Of a stretch of DNA of 18,046 nucleotides, positions 3,505 through 14,397 are shown piece by piece; position 1 is the first letter of the stretch; each line of letters opens with the position of its first letter. Below the pieces are notes generated by a model that saw nothing but the letters and a program-made list of their open reading frames with translations, was not told the origin of the DNA and did no database searches. The stretch lies in the IMG/VR virus record IMGVR_UViG_2802429220_000008, positions 1 through 18,046 of that record; one strand, given 5' to 3'. This stretch comes from a virus. Taxonomy: Duplodnaviria > Heunggongvirae > Uroviricota > Caudoviricetes. Both the position numbers and the translations under genes were made by a program.

Positions 3505-3913
3505 ACACATCCGCATGGCGATGAATGCCTGGGCGCGTCCTGATGGCGAAAAAGTTCCAGTAGCTGGAATAACCCAGGCTTATTTTGAGTTGGGTATGAC
3601 GTTTCCTGAACTGTATGACGACAGCCATCCGGAAGCCCTGTCTCGTAATACCCAGAAAATTTTCCGCTGGGTAGAAAAAGACACCCCTGATGCGGTTAAA
3701 AAAATTCAGGCGTTGTTACCGGCGATCGAAAAAGCAATGCCGCCTCCACTGGTGGCCCGAATGCGCAGCCACAGTTCGGAATATCACCGGGAGCTTGTCG
3801 AGCGACGGGAGCGCCTGGTGAAAGATATCGATGAGTTTGTTGCGGCAGCGATCGTGTTGTTCGATCAGATGAATCGTGGTGGTCCGGCGGGAAATGCCGT
3901 GGTGGCGCATTGA
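3488..3913 (+). CDS. YdaT-family protein (CII-like regulator / toxic when derepressed)
   Basis: 141 aa starting MKIKHEHI, which matches my memory of YdaT; follows the YdaS-like gene with a 17-nt overlap. Confidence 0.7.
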   Translation: MKIKHEHIRMAMNAWARPDGEKVPVAGITQAYFELGMTFPELYDDSHPEALSRNTQKIFRWVEKDTPDAVKKIQALLPAIEKAMPPPLVARMRSHSSEYHRELVERRERLVKDIDEFVAAAIVLFDQMNRGGPAGNAVVAH

Positions 3914-3933
3914 TAACGTGTTCTGGGGGGGGG

Positions 3934-4899
3934 ATGAAGCTCCTTTTTGCTGAACGTCCGCTGGTTATAAACACGCAGCTGGCGATGAAAATTGGTCTGA
4001 ACGAAGCCATCGTGTTGCAGCAGTTGCATTACTGGTTGAGAGATACCGGTTCCGGCATGGAATGTGATGGTGTTCGCTGGATTTATAACACAACAGAACA
4101 ATGGCTGGAGCAGTTCCCGTTCTGGTCAGAGTCAACGTTAAAACGCGCATTTGCAAGTCTGAAAACGCTGGGGCTTTTGCGTTGCGAAAAGCTCAATAAA
4201 TCAAAGCGTGATATGACTAATTTTTACACGATTAATTACGAGAGCGAGCTTTTAAATGGTGGCAAAGTGAGCGAATCCATCAGGTCAAAATGCGCTGCTC
4301 CATCAGGTCAGAATGACACGATGGAAGGGGCCAAAATGGCACGTTCCATTGGTTCAAAACGACTCAATGTCATCGGGTCAAAATGGCCTGATGATCTTAC
4401 AGAGAATACAACAGAGATTACTACAGAGAATAAAAACACTTCTCGTCCGGAAGCTTCGCAACCGGACCCGCAGACGGTTGAACAGGATTTTTTAACCCGA
4501 CACCCTGACGCGGTTGTGTTCAGTGCAAAAAAACGCCAGTGGGGCAACCAGGAAGATTTGGCGTGTGCGCAGTGGATCTGGGGACGAATCGTGAGTCTTT
4601 ACGAGCAGGCCGCCAGCGATGATGGCGAGATTTCGCGACCGAAAGAACCCAACTGGACCGCATGGGCCAACGACGTGCGCACAATGCGGATGCTGGATGG
4701 CAGAACTCACAGACAAATTTGTGAAATGTTTGGTCGGGCGCAGCGGGATCCATTCTGGGTAAAAAATATCATGAGTCCGTCAAAGCTTCGCGAAAAATGG
4801 GATGAACTGGTTATCCGCCTGGGGCGTTCGTCTGTACAGCGTTGCGTGAATCATATTTCTGAGCCGGATACCGAAATTCCGCCGGGGTTCAGGGGGTAA
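3934..4899 (+). CDS. Replication initiator (lambda O-like / YdaU-like) containing the origin
   Basis: N-terminal domain LVINTQLAMKIGLNEAIVLQQLHYWL; internal iteron array plus AT-rich tract; start chosen at ATG 3934 after a G-rich tract (track start 3910 is TTG). Confidence 0.75.
   Translation: MKLLFAERPLVINTQLAMKIGLNEAIVLQQLHYWLRDTGSGMECDGVRWIYNTTEQWLEQFPFWSESTLKRAFASLKTLGLLRCEKLNKSKRDMTNFYTINYESELLNGGKVSESIRSKCAAPSGQNDTMEGAKMARSIGSKRLNVIGSKWPDDLTENTTEITTENKNTSRPEASQPDPQTVEQDFLTRHPDAVVFSAKKRQWGNQEDLACAQWIWGRIVSLYEQAASDDGEISRPKEPNWTAWANDVRTMRMLDGRTHRQICEMFGRAQRDPFWVKNIMSPSKLREKWDELVIRLGRSSVQRCVNHISEPDTEIPPGFRG
4276..4386. repeat. Five iterons at 23-24 bp spacing (candidate replication origin inside the initiator gene)
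   Basis: Core ggtcaaaatg at 4283, ggtcagaatg at 4306, ggccaaaatg at 4329, gttcaaaacg at 4352, ggtcaaaatg at 4376, each preceded by tccatca-like; followed by AT-rich acagagaata repeats at about 4395-4440. Confidence 0.7.
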
Positions 4900-7786: not shown

Positions 7787-7849
7787 TGCTGCGGGTGCTT
7801 GAGGCTGTCTGCCTCGGGCATGCCACCGTAAGGCAGACAGAGAAAAGCC

Positions 7850-7915
7850 CCAGTTAACATTACGCGTCCTGCAAGACGCCTAACATTAATCTGAGGCCAA
7901 TTTCATGCTAGACAT
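7850..7915 (-). ncRNA. Predicted Sok-like antisense RNA region (boundaries uncertain)
   Basis: Inferred from hok-family organisation; candidate minus-strand promoter -35 TTGCCT (7948..7943), 17-bp spacer, -10 TAACCT (7925..7920) would give an RNA antisense to the mok start; no clean terminator found. Confidence 0.25.
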
Positions 7916-8117
7916 ATGTAGGTTAGCCTCTTACGCGCCGAAAGGCAAGGAGAAGCAGGCTATGAAGCAGCAAAAGGCGATGTTAATCGCCCTGATCGTC
8001 ATCTGTATCACCGTCATAGTGACGGCACTGGTAACGAGGAAAGACCTCTGCGAGGTACGAATCCGAACCGGCCAGACGGAGGTCGCTGTCTTCACAGCTT
8101 ACGAACCTGAGGAGTAA
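7905..8117 (+). CDS. Mok-like reading frame (in-frame leader encompassing hok)
   Basis: 70-aa ORF MLDICRLASYAPKGKEKQAMKQQK... with GAGG 8 nt upstream; same frame as hok, resembling the arrangement remembered for MokC/HokC. Confidence 0.5.
   Translation: MLDICRLASYAPKGKEKQAMKQQKAMLIALIVICITVIVTALVTRKDLCEVRIRTGQTEVAVFTAYEPEE
7962..8117 (+). CDS. hok: Hok/Gef-family type I toxin (HokD/RelF-like, 51 aa)
   Basis: MKQQKAMLIALIVICITVIVTALVTRKDLCEVRIRTGQTEVAVFTAYEPEE: single TM helix plus conserved TRKDLCE...REVA.F.AYE motif. Confidence 0.9.
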   Translation: MKQQKAMLIALIVICITVIVTALVTRKDLCEVRIRTGQTEVAVFTAYEPEE

Positions 8118-8185
8118 GAGACCTGGCGAGGGAGAAATCCCTCGCCACCTCTGATGAATCAGGCATCCTCAACGCACCCGCACTT

Positions 8186-8212
8186 AACCCGCTTCGGCGG
8201 GTTTTGTTTTTT
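8186..8212 (+). terminator. Intrinsic terminator of the hok transcript
   Basis: Stem aacccgc/gcgggtt, loop ttcg, followed by ttgtttttt; sits directly after the fbi-like element at 8167-8181. Confidence 0.7.
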
Positions 8213-9627: not shown

Positions 9628-9990
9628 ATGTGTATAGAGTTTGTTTTGCCTTACCCGCCGACGGTGAATACTTACTGGCGACGTCGTGGCAGCACATATT
9701 TTGTATCAAAAGCCGGGGAGCGTTATCGCCGGGCAGTGGCGTTTATTGTTCGCCAGCAGCAGTTGAAATTAAGCCTGTCCGGACGGCTGGCAATAAAAAT
9801 TATTGCAGAGCCACCGGATAAGCGCCGCCGTGACCTGGACAATATTCTGAAAGCACCGCTGGATGCGCTGACGCACGCGGGGTTGTTAATGGACGATGAA
9901 CAGTTTGATGAAATCAATATTGTACGTGGTCAGCCAGTATCTGGTGGACGGCTGGAAATAAGAATTACAGAGGTGGGTGTGCATGAATAA
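9628..9990 (+). CDS. rusA: RusA Holliday junction resolvase
   Basis: 120 aa from ATG 9628: LPYPPTVNTYW...RRRDLDNILKAPLDALTHAGLLMDDEQ...GGRLEIRITE, colinear with E. coli RusA. Confidence 0.9.
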   Translation: MCIEFVLPYPPTVNTYWRRRGSTYFVSKAGERYRRAVAFIVRQQQLKLSLSGRLAIKIIAEPPDKRRRDLDNILKAPLDALTHAGLLMDDEQFDEINIVRGQPVSGGRLEIRITEVGVHE

Positions 9991-10672
9991 CCAGTATTTA
10001 CAGTTTGTTCGTGAGCAACTCATGATTGCCACTGCAGATCTCAGTGGGTCGACAAAAGGCCAGCTGGAAGCCTGGCAGGAAAATGCCCTGTTCGATACAG
10101 GGCGTTACAGACGCAAAAAAATTCGTTACCGCGATGAGGTAACTGGAAAAATGATCACGCGGGATAATCCCCCGATCCAGGGTAAACAATCACTGGCGAA
10201 AGGCTCATCAATTGCGCTGGTCAGTCCTGTTGAGTTTGCAACATCATCGTGGCGGCGTGCCCTTCTGGAACTGGAAGAACATCAGAAGGCGTGGTTGTTG
10301 TGGTGTTATGGCGGAAACATTTGCTGGGAGCATCAGATCGCGATAACGCAGTGGGTGTGGAGTGAATTTAAAACTCAGTCCGGCTCCAGAAAAATTGCAG
10401 TGAAAACGCTGGAGCGTGTGAAGAAGTTGATCTGGCTGGCGGCACAGGATGTCAGAGGATGGGTTACCGGGTGTGAGGTCTACCAGAGACAGGAGCTTGC
10501 CAGACTGTGTGGAGTTAAGCCTGATAACTGGAGCCATAATTATGCGAACTACTGGCGTGAGATGTGCGATATTTTTAAGCGCCTCGATAGAGAATCCTTG
10601 ATTTGCTCCGTGAAAATAAGAGCGCAACAAAAAGCGACCTTTTCACGACGAGATATTGCAAAAGTCAATTAA
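9983..10672 (+). CDS. Late-gene antiterminator Q-like protein (Qin QuuQ / phage 82-type), assigned mainly by position
   Basis: 229 aa directly after rusA and before a short terminated region; start ATG 9983 overlaps the rusA stop with GAGG upstream; no sequence-level confirmation. Confidence 0.5.
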   Translation: MNNQYLQFVREQLMIATADLSGSTKGQLEAWQENALFDTGRYRRKKIRYRDEVTGKMITRDNPPIQGKQSLAKGSSIALVSPVEFATSSWRRALLELEEHQKAWLLWCYGGNICWEHQIAITQWVWSEFKTQSGSRKIAVKTLERVKKLIWLAAQDVRGWVTGCEVYQRQELARLCGVKPDNWSHNYANYWREMCDIFKRLDRESLICSVKIRAQQKATFSRRDIAKVN

Positions 10673-10732
10673 ATCGCGTATGTTTCGTATAAATCTGATA
10701 TTTTGCCGATTTTGTACGCGATGGCAAAGTAA

Positions 10733-10760
10733 GAAAAAACCACCGCTAGGTGGTTTTTTT
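10733..10760 (+). terminator. Intrinsic terminator about 60 bp after the Q-like gene (tR'-like candidate)
   Basis: A-tract, stem ccacc/ggtgg with loop gcta, then 7 Ts; candidate promoter elements TTGCAA (10656-10661) and TATGTT (10679-10684) upstream. Confidence 0.6.
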
Positions 10761-10883
10761 ATGTCCGAAAATCTCGTCAGTACAGTAAACGCGCTGGTGG
10801 TGGTGAATACCGGTCTTTCAGCTTGCTGGCTTTTTTGACAAGAGTTATTGGTGTGTCACGTTAACCGGAAAAGGGAAAAAGAC

Positions 10884-11081
10884 ATGCTGAAACAGCAGGA
10901 TATGACCGAAACCGCCAGAGTGGTGTTTAATGAATTAAGCGTCACTGAACCGGCGACAGTCGGGGAGATTGCGCAGAATACTTATCTTTCACGTGAACGC
11001 TGCCAGTTAATACTGACCCAGCTTGTTATGGCGGGGCTGGCAGACTATCAGTTCGGTTGTTACAGACGCCTTCAGTCCTGA
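10884..11081 (+). CDS. Small winged-helix-like protein (65 aa)
   Basis: MLKQQDMTETARVVFNELSVTEPATVGEIAQNTYLSRERCQLILTQLVMAGLADYQF; start moved to ATG 10884; followed by a terminator. Confidence 0.5.
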   Translation: MLKQQDMTETARVVFNELSVTEPATVGEIAQNTYLSRERCQLILTQLVMAGLADYQFGCYRRLQS

Positions 11082-11091
11082 AGGCTTTTTT
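11068..11091 (+). terminator. Intrinsic terminator
   Basis: Stem gccttcag/ctgaaggc around loop tc, then tttttt; overlaps the stop codon of the preceding small gene. Confidence 0.6.
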
Positions 11092-11232
11092 ATTTGTGGT
11101 AAATGGGCGGCTGGTGGGTGTTAGGGGCACTCACCAGCCATCTGCTCATGCGTCCGGATCACAAGCAAACCTCAGGCCCATCTGCTTTGCGCAAAAGCAG
11201 AATGAGCCTATCAGAGACAGGCTTAATGATCC

Positions 11233-12291
11233 ATGCTTAATACTGTAAAAATATCCAGTTGTGAGTTAATCAACGCCGACTGCCTGGAATTTATCCGGTC
11301 GTTACCCGAAAATTCTGTTGACCTGATAGTCACGGACCCGCCGTACTTTAAAGTGAAGCCTGAGGGCTGGGATAACCAGTGGAAGGGCGACGATGATTAC
11401 CTGAAGTGGCTGGACCAGTGTCTTGCGCAGTTCTGGCGGGTGCTGAAACCTGCCGGAAGTCTTTACCTGTTCTGTGGCCATCGCCTGGCATCTGATATCG
11501 AAATCATGATGCGTGAACGCTTCAGTGTGCTGAACCATATTATCTGGGCGAAGCCGTCCGGACGCTGGAACGGGTGCAACAAGGAAAGCCTGCGGGCGTA
11601 TTTTCCGGCAACAGAGCGCATTCTGTTCGCGGAACATTATCAGGGGCCGTATCGTCCGAAAGATGCCGGGTATGAGGCGAAGGGCAGGGCACTGAAACAG
11701 CATGTGATGGCCCCGCTGATTGCTTACTTTCGTGATGCGCGCGCTACCCTGGGGATAACGGCAAAACAGATTGTGGATGCCACAGGAAAGAAAAACATGG
11801 TGTCGCACTGGTTCAGTGCCAGCCAGTGGCAGTTACCGAACGAGGATGATTACAGAAAACTTCAGGTGCTGTTTGCCCGGGTGGCAGAAGAGAAACATCA
11901 GCGGGGTGAACTGGAAAAGCCACATCACCAACTGGTCAGCACATACAGTGAGCTGAACCGGCAGTATGCCAGCCTGCTGGAAGAGTACAAATCACTGCGG
12001 CGTTATTTTTCCGTATCGGCAGCCGTTCCTTATACGGATGTCTGGACGCACAAGCCTGTGCAGTATTATCCGGGCAAACATCCCTGTGAAAAACCGGCAG
12101 ATATGTTGCGGCAAATGATTACCGCCAGCAGTCGTCCGGGTGACCTGGTTGCAGATTTCTTCATGGGGTCCGGTTCGACAGTCAAAGCAGCGATGGCGCT
12201 GGGGCGTCGTGCAATTGGTGTCGAGCTGGAGGCTGAACGTTTTGAGCAGACCGCAAGGGATGTACAGAATTTAATCAGAAAGAGAGAGTGA
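11233..12291 (+). CDS. Orphan DNA methyltransferase (N6-adenine or N4-cytosine, DPPY motif)
   Basis: 352 aa; DLIVTDPPYF near the N-terminus and FFMGSGST near the C-terminus; no adjacent restriction endonuclease ORF. Confidence 0.8.
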   Translation: MLNTVKISSCELINADCLEFIRSLPENSVDLIVTDPPYFKVKPEGWDNQWKGDDDYLKWLDQCLAQFWRVLKPAGSLYLFCGHRLASDIEIMMRERFSVLNHIIWAKPSGRWNGCNKESLRAYFPATERILFAEHYQGPYRPKDAGYEAKGRALKQHVMAPLIAYFRDARATLGITAKQIVDATGKKNMVSHWFSASQWQLPNEDDYRKLQVLFARVAEEKHQRGELEKPHHQLVSTYSELNRQYASLLEEYKSLRRYFSVSAAVPYTDVWTHKPVQYYPGKHPCEKPADMLRQMITASSRPGDLVADFFMGSGSTVKAAMALGRRAIGVELEAERFEQTARDVQNLIRKRE

Positions 12292-12331
12292 TATTGCTGA
12301 ATTTATTCTGTAACGTTATCATTATGTTATC

Positions 12332-12407
12332 GGCCCTTTAGCTCAGTGGTGAGAGCGAGCGACTCATAATCGCCAGGTCGCTGGTTCAAATCCAGCAAGG
12401 GCCACCA
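12332..12407 (+). tRNA. tRNA with CAU anticodon (Met, or Ile2 if lysidine-modified)
   Basis: Manual fold: acceptor ggccctt/aagggcc, D-arm gctc..gagc, anticodon loop cuCAUaa, T-arm gctgg-ttcaaat-ccagc, 3' ACCA. Confidence 0.85.
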
Positions 12408-12408
12408 A

Positions 12409-12474
12409 CCGCCACTAGCTCATCAGGAAAGAACGTCACCCTGTGCGAGATTCGGAGTCCCCGGTGGCGGTCCA
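12409..12474 (+). other. tRNA-like remnant (perfect acceptor stem and CCA but too short, no canonical T-arm)
   Basis: ccgccac ... gtggcgg followed by tcca, 66 nt overall, sitting between two intact tRNAs where Stx-type phages carry three tRNAs. Confidence 0.35.
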
Positions 12475-12487
12475 TTATCAGCATTAT

Positions 12488-12564
12488 GCGTTGTTAGCTC
12501 AGCCGGACAGAGCAATTGCCTTCTAAGCAATCGGTCACTGGTTCGAATCCAGTACAACGCGCCA
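12488..12564 (+). tRNA. tRNA-Arg (anticodon UCU)
   Basis: Manual fold: acceptor gcgttgt/acaacgc, D-arm gctc..gagc, anticodon stem attgc/gcaat with loop cuUCUaa, T-arm cactg-gttcgaat-ccagt, GCCA end. Confidence 0.85.
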
Positions 12565-12575
12565 TATTTATTTAC

Positions 12576-12617
12576 CTGGCTCGCTTTTGCGGGCCTTTTT
12601 TGTATCTGCGTTACACC
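12576..12617 (+). repeat. Terminator-like element, copy A (ggctcgc-tttt-gcgggcc + ttttttgtatctgcg)
   Basis: Imperfect hairpin plus T-tract directly downstream of tRNA-Arg; about 80 percent identical to 13173-13213. Confidence 0.6.
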
Positions 12618-12653
12618 ATTAACTAATAAATCGAGTGCTTATCAGGAGGCTAT

Positions 12654-12878
12654 GTGAAAAAACTGATGGTGACGATTGGTCCGTTCGAAACAGAAGTTAG
12701 TTTTCGTGTTGTTCAGGGGGAGAGTGTACTTGTTGAAGATGTATTTCATGGAAAATCAACAGGTCCTTATGTAAAAGAATATCTTATCGACGCCACGGAT
12801 GAAAATATTGAGGTGGTGTACGATTCCGTCAATCACCCTGATTTGATCATTAAGGCAAAATTGAAGCCACTTTATTGA
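12654..12878 (+). CDS. Hypothetical small protein (74 aa), AT-rich cargo gene
   Basis: AGGAGG 4 nt upstream of GTG start; MKKLMVTIGPFETEVSFRVVQGESVLVEDVFHGK...; no family recognised. Confidence 0.5.
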   Translation: MKKLMVTIGPFETEVSFRVVQGESVLVEDVFHGKSTGPYVKEYLIDATDENIEVVYDSVNHPDLIIKAKLKPLY

Positions 12879-12930
12879 TCTGACCGGGAGCAATCATAAA
12901 ATATCTCTGGGTACCCACAAGGAGATAAAT

Positions 12931-13140
12931 ATGTTTGTTTCTGAAGTGTTAATGGAAGATAAGGACAACAAAGGATGGGTTAAAGGTTGGGCTGTGGTAA
13001 GAAGCTCGCCCTGGCATCTTGTTGGGGTTTTTGCGACAGAGGAAGACGCAGAAACGGAAGCAAGAAAGATGGGAGATAAGTACGAGGTTCACTATGGCTC
13101 GCATCGAACAGGAAGTGATGATTTTGTCTGGGGGGAGTAA
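12931..13140 (+). CDS. Hypothetical small protein (69 aa)
   Basis: AAGGAG 6 nt upstream of ATG; MFVSEVLMEDKDNKGWVKGWAVVRSSPWHLVGVFATEEDAETEARKMG...; no family recognised. Confidence 0.55.
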   Translation: MFVSEVLMEDKDNKGWVKGWAVVRSSPWHLVGVFATEEDAETEARKMGDKYEVHYGSHRTGSDDFVWGE

Positions 13141-13172
13141 CAGTCGTTTAACCCCAGAATAATCCCGTAACT

Positions 13173-13213
13173 GAGGTCGCTATTGGCGGCCTTTTTTGTA
13201 TCCGCGCCACGCC
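13173..13213 (+). repeat. Terminator-like element, copy B (ggtcgc-tatt-ggcggcc + ttttttgtatccgcg)
   Basis: Second copy of the element at 12576-12617; together they bracket the two small ORFs. Confidence 0.6.
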
Positions 13214-13329
13214 CGGCACATATCAACCACAGAGCCTTTCGGGGGTGAGCTTACGGAGTGGTCAGTGTGACTTTCTCTGTGGGCAGATCGCTCCCGGGCG
13301 TTGGCTCACCCACCCAAAGGAACGTCACG

Positions 13330-13761
13330 ATGTTTGGTATTTTCAAAAAGAAAACCCGCAGAGCAGCAGCGGAAATTAAAAAGTTTGAGAAACGTGATCT
13401 GGCACAGGCGGTTATTAATGCTGCCTATCTGGTGGCCTATGCAGATGGTGAATGTGAGGCTTCAGAGAAAGCGAAGATCGAGCAGGTCTTGCGTAACCAG
13501 CCAGCGTTGTCCGCGTTTACGTCAGAAATTAATGCTATCAGTGCCACGATCACAGGTCAGCTTGACACCAACTTTAAAATTGGTCGTCGAGCGGCGTTGC
13601 GTGAAATTGAAGATGTGAAACACGATACGCGTGAAGCGGAAGATGTGCTGGATGTGGCGGTGGCCATTGCTGAAGCAGATGGTGAAATTGAGCCGGAAGA
13701 GCGTAAGGTTCTGGAAGAGATCGCCGGTGTTCTTGGCCTGCGACTGGAGAACCACCTGTGA
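13330..13761 (+). CDS. TerB-like domain protein
   Basis: 143 aa from ATG 13330 (AGGA 8 nt upstream); two TerB-like repeats AYADGECEASEKAKIEQVL and AEADGEIEPEERKVLEEIAGVLGL. Confidence 0.6.
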   Translation: MFGIFKKKTRRAAAEIKKFEKRDLAQAVINAAYLVAYADGECEASEKAKIEQVLRNQPALSAFTSEINAISATITGQLDTNFKIGRRAALREIEDVKHDTREAEDVLDVAVAIAEADGEIEPEERKVLEEIAGVLGLRLENHL

Positions 13762-13922
13762 CGGTAAAACTGCGTCTGGCCGCTGTGGCACTCCTGCTGT
13801 TTCTGGTGGTGATGGTGGACTTCACCAGCAGGATCATGTCGGTGCTGGCGGATGGAGTGCTGGTGGTCGGTATTGTGGTGGTGCTTTTTCCTTTGGTGAA
13901 AAAGGAGATGTCAGGTAGTTAG
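13758..13922 (+). CDS. Small two-helix membrane protein (54 aa), translationally coupled to the TerB-like gene
   Basis: GTG start overlapping the TerB-like stop (GTGA); GGAGA 8 nt upstream; LLLFLVVMV and VLVVGIVVVLF hydrophobic segments. Below the track size cut-off. Confidence 0.35.
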   Translation: MTVKLRLAAVALLLFLVVMVDFTSRIMSVLADGVLVVGIVVVLFPLVKKEMSGS

Positions 13923-14156
13923 CCGGGTATCAGTCATGCCCTGAAAATTTTAAATGTCTCACAATTCAGACGGTTGACAGTTGTCTGGTTTGCGGGGAGT
14001 TTGTTAAAAGAAACTGGCATGGTGAATCCCCCTGAGCGGAGGGGCATATCAGCGCAGGTGTTTCTACTCTATCCTTTCTGTGCGGGTTCAGGTGCTGATA
14101 CTGAACTCACCGGGAGGCACCCGGCACCATGCAAGAAAAAGAATGTGCATGCAAAC

Positions 14157-14184
14157 ATGCCCCTCTCCGGAGGGGCATTTTTAT
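14157..14184 (+). terminator. Intrinsic terminator
   Basis: Perfect 9-bp stem atgcccctc/gaggggcat, loop tccg, then ttttat. Confidence 0.6.
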
Positions 14185-14397
14185 GGGTAAAAAATGCCCG
14201 AATGGGTTCGGGCAATAGCATGAGATACTGATATTGTTGTGTTGTTATCGTGTGGATTTTAACCAGGGTTTATCAGGCTGCGCAACTGCGTGGCCTTTTT
14301 TCATTTCTTGGGCTGTAGTCCCCGTGTGTCATTCAGGCTTCCGGACTACAGCCCACTCCATATCTGATTTAATACACTATCCCGGCCGGGAGGAATA

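Follow-up and report, generated by a model that had tools for sequence, protein, structure and literature searches.

In lambdoid phages that carry Shiga toxin (Stx) genes, the toxin belongs to the late region. In particular, in the reference Stx2a phages this region runs in the order Q, PR'-tR', ileZ-argN-argO, stx2AB, the small RNA (sRNA) pair EcOnc27/AsxR, nanS-p and S-R-Rz, and its control by Q antitermination, following the PR'/tR' logic, has been described in an Stx phage (Sy et al. 2020, PMC7547250). Tree et al. 2014 (PMC4104026) described a moron insertion site downstream of the Q-antiterminated PR', with convergent sRNA pairs, and named Sp5 (stx2) together with the non-Stx prophages Sp3, 4, 9, 10, 11, 15 and 17. 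More recently, prophage sRNAs were stated in a 2026 preprint (Zhu et al.) to have TerB and STnc100 in their conserved neighbourhood, around the esterase gene. Here we describe a locus of this kind in the IMG/VR virus record IMGVR_UViG_2802429220_000008, whose 18,046 nucleotides (nt) are referred to as the window; the interval in question, 12332-14397, spans from the tRNAs to nanS-p. Its layout is already known and ordinary, being that of the late cargo slot of a toxin-free lambdoid, Stx-phage-like prophage, and it is very probable that the interval works as a 'moron' slot in the late operon of such a prophage, with an expression logic that is proposed by analogy with Stx phages. The leader RNA of one cargo gene, tciA, may be the only element of the locus that is new.

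The late region forms the right half of the window, where RusA is followed by Q and all genes lie on the plus strand. Q is followed by a terminator, a methylase, ileZ, a remnant of argN, argO, a second terminator, the pair of open reading frames (ORFs) ORF74-ORF69, a third terminator and the leader-tciA-tciB module; after tciB come an STnc100-like sRNA converging on the sRNA AgvB, then nanS-p, a terminator, the pinholin and the endolysin. A preliminary description of this DNA had read the order Q-like gene, methylase, tRNAs, cargo, NanS-p esterase and pinholin as the architecture of an Stx prophage, and domain and tRNA searches found every one of these elements on the plus strand. Of the features by which an Stx-type moron slot is recognized, those of sequence are all present, namely Q with an intrinsic terminator, the ileZ/argN/argO cluster, and cargo followed by convergent sRNAs, nanS-p and lysis genes. 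That the locus is a known cargo site, as also claimed there, agrees with the moron insertion site downstream of PR' in the literature (PMC4104026).

The position of the cargo relative to the toxin genes was defined by pairwise BLAST of window positions 9900-17800 against fetched loci, and breakpoints were compared with PPyecE_EH1910, JLK-2012, Stx2_EH2246, OkiPb01678, O157 F6321 and Sakai Sp5. In the Stx2a phage Stx2_EH2246, homology covers 10736-12610 (89.5%), a block that extends from just past Q, via the methylase and the tRNAs, to the post-tRNA terminator; it then covers 13955-14184 (71%), which matches the segment directly after stx2B, and resumes from 14398 (nanS-p). Sakai Sp5 has the same limits, with homology at 12181-12610 and from 13955 on. 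Since homology breaks at 12610/13955 in two Stx2a phages, window positions 12611-13954 (1344 nt) stand in place of stx2AB, which measures 1326 nt in Stx2_EH2246, and the synteny check suggested in the preliminary description thus brackets the cargo exactly. The stx2AB position is taken by ORF74, ORF69, tciA (TerB family) and tciB (DUF3927). The window has no homology to stx2A or stx2B and is, by gene content, not an Stx-converting phage; likewise, stx2A or stx2B was found within 3 kb of none of 80 IMG/VR loci encoding a near-identical TerB protein. At these 80 loci the leader is present in 79, STnc100 in 70, the tRNAs in 63-64, AgvB in 30, a RelE-type pair in eight and ORF74/69 in six.

The likeness to Stx2a phages (Sp5/933W, Stx2_EH2246) extends to the whole late region, which has the same order and strand and in which pinholin and endolysin correspond. 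The methylase, the tRNAs and the tRNA terminator are homologous to those of the window at 84-90% identity, an STnc100-like sRNA lies right after the cargo as in the window (71-74%), and nanS-p is homologous (71-81%). The differences lie in the absence of stx, with ORF74/69 and tciAB filling the slot, in a Q of a different family (PF06323), in the sequence of the Q-proximal terminator, in the decay of argN, in the replacement of AsxR by AgvB and in the absence of an iraM-like gene.

A correspondence also exists with the Stx-negative prophages PPyecE_EH1910, JLK-2012, O157:H7 F6321 and OkiPb01678, which carry the same cassette gene for gene (tRNA-Ile, tRNA-Arg, two hypothetical proteins, TerB family, DUF3927 and SASA esterase) and are 94-96% identical over the whole interval. 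In particular, whole-interval identity among complete E. coli genomes is 95.6% for OkiPb01678, the best full-interval match in the collection, and 94.7% for O157:H7 F6321. The cargo has been annotated before, as 'TciA/TerB-like protein' in PPyecE_EH1910 and as tciA and tciB in JLK-2012. What sets the window apart from these prophages is that an 82-type Q occurs in it together with the two-tRNA variant and the ORF74/69 insertion. The DNA of tciA/tciB occurs in 938 of 5426 complete E. coli genomes (17%), with a median of four copies, and ORF74/69 in 110 of the same genomes, 102 of them at 99% identity or above. The description of the cargo as unknown small genes plus a TerB-like module without toxin was borne out; the two small genes already belong to PHROG families 2571 and 4280, and all four cargo proteins are members of PHROG families. 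That description was also incomplete, in that it missed the STnc100-like and AgvB sRNAs, the decayed argN, the structured leader of tciA and the bounded nature of the ORF74/69 insertion. As to the window as a whole, its best match in a complete E. coli genome has about 95% identity over 81% of its length; the ORF74/69 and tciAB modules have 100% matches in different strains, and the window is a mosaic without counterpart in the collection.

The cargo is modular. The post-tRNA terminator (12578-12617, plus strand) and the terminator before the tciA module (13173-13213, plus strand), both found by a terminator scan, contain the left and right copies of a 37-nt direct repeat (D1; 12581-12617 and 13177-13213), which are 81% identical and 596 nt apart. 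Thus, ORF74-ORF69 forms a separate 596-bp insertion with a copy of the duplicated terminator at either end. The start of the tciA module in other phages is always near 13177, that is at the terminator, and the place of ORF74/69 is taken by a RelE/ParE-type pair in PPyecE_EH1910 and by nothing in JLK-2012. ORF74 (12654-12878, plus strand; 74 amino acids (aa), WP_000735807.1) belongs to phrog_2571 (E = 1.9e-26) and is preceded by an AGGAGG ribosome-binding site, while ORF69 (12931-13140, plus strand; 69 aa) belongs to phrog_4280 (6.1e-41) and also has a good ribosome-binding site. ORF74 is nearly an orphan, with four clusters in 5.8 billion proteins and 11 weak relatives in 1.84 billion representatives (HMMER); two of these relatives are long repeat proteins, the Pfam content of which (MBG, SprB, LRR) tells little and is probably spurious. 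Homologues of ORF69 fall into 17 clusters, from Escherichia, Salmonella and Xenorhabdus, and share 24 invariant columns; identities are 60-70% in the latter two genera. In a prophage of Xenorhabdus sp. SF857 (3695-4216), homologues of ORF74 (36%) and ORF69 (65%) are adjacent and lie upstream of the holin; as the ORF74 homologue precedes that of ORF69 there too, the two genes form a conserved pair. A gene of the Acb2/Tad1-hairpin family lies a few genes downstream of the pair in that prophage. Structure prediction with AlphaFold2 (AF2) gave for ORF69 a beta-beta-alpha-beta-beta fold, with a predicted local distance difference test score (pLDDT) of 84 in one of five models and about 57 in the other four. 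A Foldseek comparison of the model with the PDB returned no significant fold match (best E = 0.9), and weak top matches to the anti-CRISPR AcrIIC1 (E of about 1-2, template modelling (TM) score 0.37-0.40) were rejected as chance. The single-sequence AF2 model of ORF74 was unusable (pLDDT 45), and no Pfam, NCBIfam or PADLOC family applies to either protein.

The second module encodes tciA and tciB. The tciA gene (13330-13761, plus strand) specifies an acidic TerB-family protein of 143 aa (PF05099, E = 1.4e-16, 61.2 bits against a cut-off of 24.4; phrog_632, 1.8e-69, full length) with two ADGExE repeats (internal repeat D2), for which NCBIfam gave only sub-threshold similarity to DjlA/YmfL. The tciB gene (13758-13922, plus strand) specifies a hydrophobic DUF3927 mini-protein of 54 aa (PF13064, 5.4e-16; phrog_1470, 1.1e-24), and its start overlaps the stop of tciA (GTGA), which implies translational coupling. 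The names stem from phage P1, where they were given by homology to ter-operon genes. In P1 and the P1-like D6, a TerB-family gene is followed by a DUF3927 mini-gene beside phage tRNA genes, as in the window, while P1 has a tciC that the window lacks; in D6 no leader motif could be recognized by eye in the alignment and a covariance model (CM) search gave no match at E of 1 or below. In Escherichia and Klebsiella phages tciAB lies between Q and the lysis genes or holin; in a phage of Actinobacillus it immediately precedes the holin, no Q being annotated in the vicinity, and in lytic Erwinia and Salmonella jumbo phages it adjoins tRNA genes, at a protein identity of 66-74%. A TerB-DUF3927 pair adjoins phage tRNA genes in four kinds of phage, the tRNAs being ileZ/argO or Asn/Thr/Gly in lambdoid phages, Trp/Cys in jumbo phages (Machinavirus/Erskinevirus) and Asn/Thr/Ser in P1-like phages. 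Among the viral loci that carry the leader, 111 could be evaluated, and both genes are intact in 103 of these. Because the genes are translationally coupled, TciA, as a cytosolic TerB fold, and TciB, as a tiny membrane protein, most likely act as a membrane-associated pair in late lytic growth.

The working of the locus can be proposed by analogy with Stx phages. In the lysogen, transcription from PR' would halt at the first terminator after Q, whereas upon induction the Q-modified RNA polymerase would pass all six or seven intrinsic terminators, and this read-through would express the methylase, ORF74/69, tciA/tciB and nanS-p along with the lysis genes. The tRNAs as well as both sRNAs would be transcribed from promoters of their own and be active in the lysogen; a separate tRNA promoter has been mapped in Sp5. 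AgvB would sequester the seed of GcvB and so de-repress peptide and amino-acid uptake, and the tRNAs would furnish decoders for AUA and AGA. As suggested by sequence and covariation, the pseudoknotted leader of about 130 nt would gate the translation of tciA, in that a CCUUU anti-Shine-Dalgarno (anti-SD) together with helix P2 would occlude the SD, and an exclusive alternative pairing would free it.

Two elements on which this working depends are Q and its terminator. Q (9977-10672, plus strand) belongs to PF06323, the 82-type family (E = 3.7e-83), and is not of the Q933 type of Sp5. The presumptive tR' (10734-10761, plus strand) is the intrinsic terminator that comes first downstream of Q; it was found by the terminator scan as a bidirectional hairpin that has a T-run, and was assigned from its position. 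The scan returned 22 terminator-like sites in 9900-17200, compared with 6.4 expected from shuffles. Several points weigh against the proposed working. The tR' label depends on position, and the sequence of this terminator differs from that of Sp5 tR'; a promoter scan near Q returned no convincing PR' site, and the Q type differs from the characterized Q933. No promoter for tciA was recognized by eye, which leaves room for weak or non-sigma-70 promoters and hence for expression in the lysogen. Finally, tciABC of P1 score as non-essential, so that any role in the lytic programme would be accessory.

It was also considered that tciA/tciB and ORF74/ORF69 may be lysogenic-conversion or defence genes that are transcribed from their own promoters independently of Q, and that mediate superinfection exclusion or tolerance to colicins or tellurite. 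Such a role would fit the bracketing of each module by terminators, as in a classical moron, the GC content of the ORF74/69 segment (41% compared with about 51% in the flanks), a promoter-like TTGATC-16-TAAAAT at 12875-12902, before ORF69, and the literature that links ter operons with phage inhibition and colicin resistance (PMC9603915). However, PADLOC assigned none of the four proteins to a defence family (best E = 0.002, with the candidate model PDC-S48), and the methylase alone matched MTase models. Moreover, alignments of the tciA leader contain no conserved -10-like hexamer, a terminator stands immediately ahead of the leader in lambdoid copies, and tciAB with its leader is found in jumbo phages that are strictly lytic and for which lysogenic conversion would have no meaning; we thus regard this explanation as unlikely, though it deserves to be kept in mind. 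From the copies in lytic phages and the terminator just upstream in lambdoid copies, we infer a late lytic role for tciAB in preference to lysogenic conversion. A sigma-70 promoter inside the tciA leader had been a candidate and was rejected, as its -10 region falls in the least conserved part. In the literature, no experiment was found on tellurite or colicin resistance or on inhibition of cell division by phage tciA, and mentions of DUF3927 were uninformative.

The leader of tciA (13202-13332, plus strand; about 130 nt) was delineated in alignments A1, A2, A6 and A7 and scores 145.9 bits with the covariance model R1. The first sign of it was that BLAST matches to Klebsiella phages covered only about 130 nt ahead of the tciA start codon. 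Indeed, a comparison of the window with the Klebsiella and LMessi phages gives 81-82% identity for the leader, but only 57-58% for the coding sequence and 43% for the protein. The alignments contain long invariant blocks and show compensatory changes once jumbo-phage copies are added. On the plus strand, the leader comprises the hairpin P1 (13204-13208/13215-13219), a pseudoknot between CGCCC (13210-13214) and GGGCG (13296-13300), and the helix P2, in which GGGUGAGC (13243-13250) pairs with GCUCACCC (13304-13311). Covariation speaks for all three, P2 being so placed that it could hide the ribosome-binding site; in addition, CCUUU at 13235-13239 can pair with the SD AAAGG at 13316-13320. Folded singly, the leader is not significant (z = -1.45), and a first RNAalifold run on close relatives showed almost no covariation; the structure could be tested only after jumbo-phage and class-2 copies had been added.

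In alignment A7, which holds 22 representatives, P1, the pseudoknot (in which the P1 loop pairs with a 5-mer some 85 nt farther on) and two further helices were tested. Of all cells, 97.7% are paired, compared with 38-55% when the partners are slid, seven pairs are changed on both sides, and on four of five measures the observed value lies beyond all 500 shuffles. The P1 stems vary while the loops are constant (GCGCC/GGCGC, CUGUC/GACAG, ACAUC/GAUGU, UGCGC/GCGCA), and the P1 loop covaries with the distal 5-mer (CGCCC:GGGCG, CGCUC:GAGCG, GGCUC:GAGCC, CUCAC:GUGAG, CGCAC:GUGCG). In a second scan, the loop position that varies (G/T) and its varying distal counterpart (C/A) were both left free: among 119 instances, 68 had U-A, 50 G-C, one a mismatch and none G-A, so that 118 of 119 were complementary (Fisher's p = 3e-21, for unique sequences with phylogeny ignored). 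Both matched combinations were found within one subclass. In a hand-parsed set of 25 representatives with 5000 strand shuffles, pairing amounted to 93.6% for P1 (56% in shuffles), 99.2% for the pseudoknot (80%) and 89.5% for P2 (82%), no shuffle reaching the observed value for any helix, with the structure derived from the same sequences on which pairing was tested. A generic hairpin-plus-pseudoknot expression had proved too permissive and was replaced by anchored parses. In IMG/VR, at least 119 copies of the leader were recovered by a pattern scan, followed by a TerB ORF in 103, by the end of the contig in eight and by disrupted ORFs in eight, while a scan of the genome collection with a 20-mer from the leader gave only eight loci, two of which (Chloroflexi-type metagenome-assembled genomes) were chance matches without the motif.

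As to function, every leader class has CCUUU or UCUUU just 5' of P2 and the SD AAAGG just 3' of it, so that P2, when extended, can occlude the SD; for the tciA class, an alternative pairing that excludes this one (GAGCC:GGCUC and GGGGGUG:CGCUCCC) would free the SD. Related leaders, found on several hundred viral contigs, precede genes for Rha, KilA-N, KilAC/ANT, AntA-like, HNH endonuclease, tail-tip-fibre-like and unknown proteins. On this basis, the leader of about 115-140 nt may represent an undescribed class of pseudoknotted cis-regulatory RNA that gates the translation of accessory genes in phage late operons of temperate enterobacterial phages (and, for tciA, also of lytic jumbo phages) by switching between SD-occluded and SD-free folds on some signal, a proposal that we consider evenly poised between right and wrong. 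On the opposite side of the balance, the SD-sequestering helix is invariant and so has no support from covariation, and it loses three pairs in jumbo-phage copies. The signal may be a phage or host protein, co-transcriptional folding behind the Q-modified polymerase, temperature or a small molecule; the heterogeneity of the downstream genes (TerB, Rha, KilA-N, Ant, HNH, tail-fibre-like) argues against a metabolite ligand.

Translational control of this type has known forms. The preQ1-II and SAM-II/V riboswitches are pseudoknotted and sequester the SD, and hairpins that occlude the ribosome-binding site restrict the translation of T4 homing endonucleases to late transcripts. On paper, the leader resembles the former as a compact 5' leader with an SD-hiding helix, a loop-to-distal pseudoknot and an SD-freeing alternative pairing, and the latter in standing ahead of mobile or accessory phage genes, including HNH endonucleases. 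It differs from the SD-sequestering riboswitches in lacking similarity in sequence or model to any Rfam 15 family and in the heterogeneity of its downstream genes. In particular, Rfam 15 holds no family for any leader class, and four representatives gave only chance-level matches of 10-19 bits at a cut-off of E = 10, terminator fragments being disregarded. No paper was found that describes the leader, and none in which TerB is connected with a riboswitch or RNA motif, or in which a pseudoknot is described for an antirepressor.

The leader may also be looked upon as a 'boundary sequence' at the DNA level, a homology arm for the swapping of cargo, whose RNA structure would be incidental. Indeed, the element borders many unrelated genes on their 5' side, mosaic breakpoints fall on it at 13177, and much of its sequence is invariant in a way that covariation does not explain. 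Nevertheless, a role of this kind in place of an RNA function appears rather improbable, given that stems vary while loops are constant, that the loop and the distal 5-mer covary to the extent given above, and that the element always ends in an SD and a start codon at fixed spacing. The DNA and RNA roles are, moreover, not mutually exclusive.

A second, diverged copy of the element lies in the window at 17825-17960 (plus strand; 43 bits and E of about 5e-10 with the covariance model R1, which was built from A7). Here the pairings are kept while the letters differ, with P1 as UGCGC-AUCUCAC-GCGCA, the pseudoknot as CUCAC:GUGAG and a GAACC:GGUUC pairing. This copy precedes a truncated antirepressor ORF (17958-18002), which stops after 14 codons (MNMMAVPFHGNRLI, then stop) and measures 189 aa in PPyecE_EH1910. 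Beyond about 12 codons its sequence is no longer similar, which points to a breakpoint left by recombination or deletion. In PPyecE_EH1910, O157 F6321 and the Stx2a phage Stx2_EH2246, the element precedes intact antirepressors of 189 aa.

Between tciB and nanS-p lie two sRNA genes, which are the only cargo here with experimental characterization elsewhere. The STnc100-family sRNA (EcOnc27/PasD-like; 13988-14188, plus strand) matches Rfam RF02076 with 151.6 bits against a gathering threshold of 47, over model positions 1-206, and its terminator (14157-14178, plus strand) lies inside the gene. Its counterpart in Stx2a phages, with 71-74% identity, is the segment that follows stx2B directly, where EcOnc27 sits in Sp5 (PMC4104026); the relationship between PasD and STnc100 comes from the preprint of Zhu et al. 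AgvB, an anti-sRNA that acts as a GcvB sponge, lies at 14189-14250 on the minus strand (RF02702, 96.5 bits against a gathering threshold of 56). Its RNA begins with CGAUAACAACACAACAAU, has the 5'-end motif AACAACACAACAAU and keeps CACAACA, the target motif for the R1 seed of GcvB, and its terminator is at 14214-14195 on the minus strand. The two sRNAs converge end to end, like EcOnc27/AsxR in Sp5, and AgvB with a convergent partner is likewise carried by Sakai Sp10/Sp17 (PMC4104026). The study that defined the motif showed for the Sakai copies that AgvB relieves the repression of DppA and that growth in bovine rectal mucus is improved by it (PMC4104026). A plus-strand terminator-like hairpin (14275-14296) lies within the apparent AgvB promoter region (minus-strand TTGCGC-18-TAAAAT, by eye). 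Elsewhere in the window, a sub-threshold STnc100-like match was seen at 852-1070 on the minus strand (31 bits against 47).

The tRNA cluster at the left of the interval, all on the plus strand, begins with tRNA-Ile2 (ileZ; 12332-12407, Rfam tRNA 72.5 bits), whose anticodon CAU reads AUA after lysidine modification; ARAGORN calls it Met(CAU), and both RefSeq and the Sakai record list the identical gene as tRNA-Ile/ileZ with the anticodon cat. The tRNA-Arg gene argO (12488-12564; ARAGORN, Rfam 70.1 bits) has the anticodon UCU and reads AGA. The segment between them (12409-12474) is, by alignment with three-tRNA versions, a decayed argN, that is a remnant of tRNA-Arg(UCG) that has lost the anticodon arm through a 12-nt deletion and carries several substitutions besides. 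Neither ARAGORN nor Rfam calls the remnant, and its fold is no better than that of shuffles (z = -0.89). The reading of the 80-nt inter-tRNA gap as a novel tRNA-like element was rejected, since the alignment shows argN minus its anticodon arm. This variant is the commoner form, found in 42 of 64 tRNA-bearing IMG/VR loci.

That an Stx phage lost stx and the whole region is its decaying relic, with the small ORFs and the TerB-like gene as non-functional debris, is hardly credible: argN is visibly decayed, the antirepressor ORF downstream of the endolysin is cut to 14 codons and the best complete E. coli genome match to the window reaches only about 95% over 81%, but all cargo ORFs are intact, each with a ribosome-binding site, ORF74/69 are 99-100% identical in 102 genomes, tciA/tciB are intact in the 103 of 111 loci, widespread and conserved as proteins out to lytic jumbo phages, ORF69 keeps its invariant columns across three genera, both sRNAs score far above their Rfam gathering thresholds, the tciAB layout is itself common, and there is no sign that stx was ever present, so that on the side of conservation the degenerate remnant named in the preliminary description was not found.

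The other genes of the late region, again on the plus strand, are those expected of such a locus. A 65-aa ORF (10884-11081; phrog_331, 1e-37), annotated also in PPyecE_EH1910, Stx2_EH2246 and OkiPb01678, is followed by a terminator at 11068-11085 (terminator scan) and by an orphan type II-like N6/N4 DNA methyltransferase (11233-12291; PF01555, 2e-44; PADLOC MTase_II, 3.4e-159). Downstream of the cargo, nanS-p (14398-16248) encodes a phage 9-O-acetyl-sialate esterase with DUF1737, SASA and DUF6645 domains, 96-97% identical to yjhS/nanS-p of Stx1a phages. The lysis cassette (16548-17687), with annotated counterparts in PPyecE_EH1910 and O157:H7 F6321, consists of an S21-type class II holin or pinholin (16548-16754; PF04971, 8.8e-33), DUF1327/YdfR (16759-17103; PF07041) and a lysozyme as endolysin (17154-17687). 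The nanS-p/holin spacer contains a strong intrinsic terminator with an 11-bp stem (16466-16492, plus strand; terminator scan), which by its position is a possible 3' end of a PasA/PasC-type sRNA, the sRNAs that Zhu et al. located in this spacer. The spacer (16249-16547) is conserved in O157 F6321 and not in PPyecE_EH1910. Outside the late region, a hok/sok-type type I toxin-antitoxin locus was seen in the nin region at 7793-8117 (Rfam sok, 114 bits at 7793-7967; 70-aa ORF at 7905-8117), next to a sub-threshold isrK-like match at 8126-8207.

All in all, the locus is one more copy of a well-described layout, and the finding as stated matters little in itself. It confirms the stx position as a general, modular cargo site, in which tciA/tciB are among the commonest occupants, and it indicates that annotators should expect STnc100/PasD-like and AgvB/AsxR-like sRNA genes, as well as tRNA remnants, in the 'empty' spacers of this region. 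The leader RNA, if real, would be a widespread, phage-specific element of translational control common to unrelated accessory and mobile genes; it would offer a handle on how potentially toxic cargo, such as antirepressors, KilA-like proteins, homing endonucleases and membrane proteins, is kept silent, as well as a ready-made RNA switch to test.

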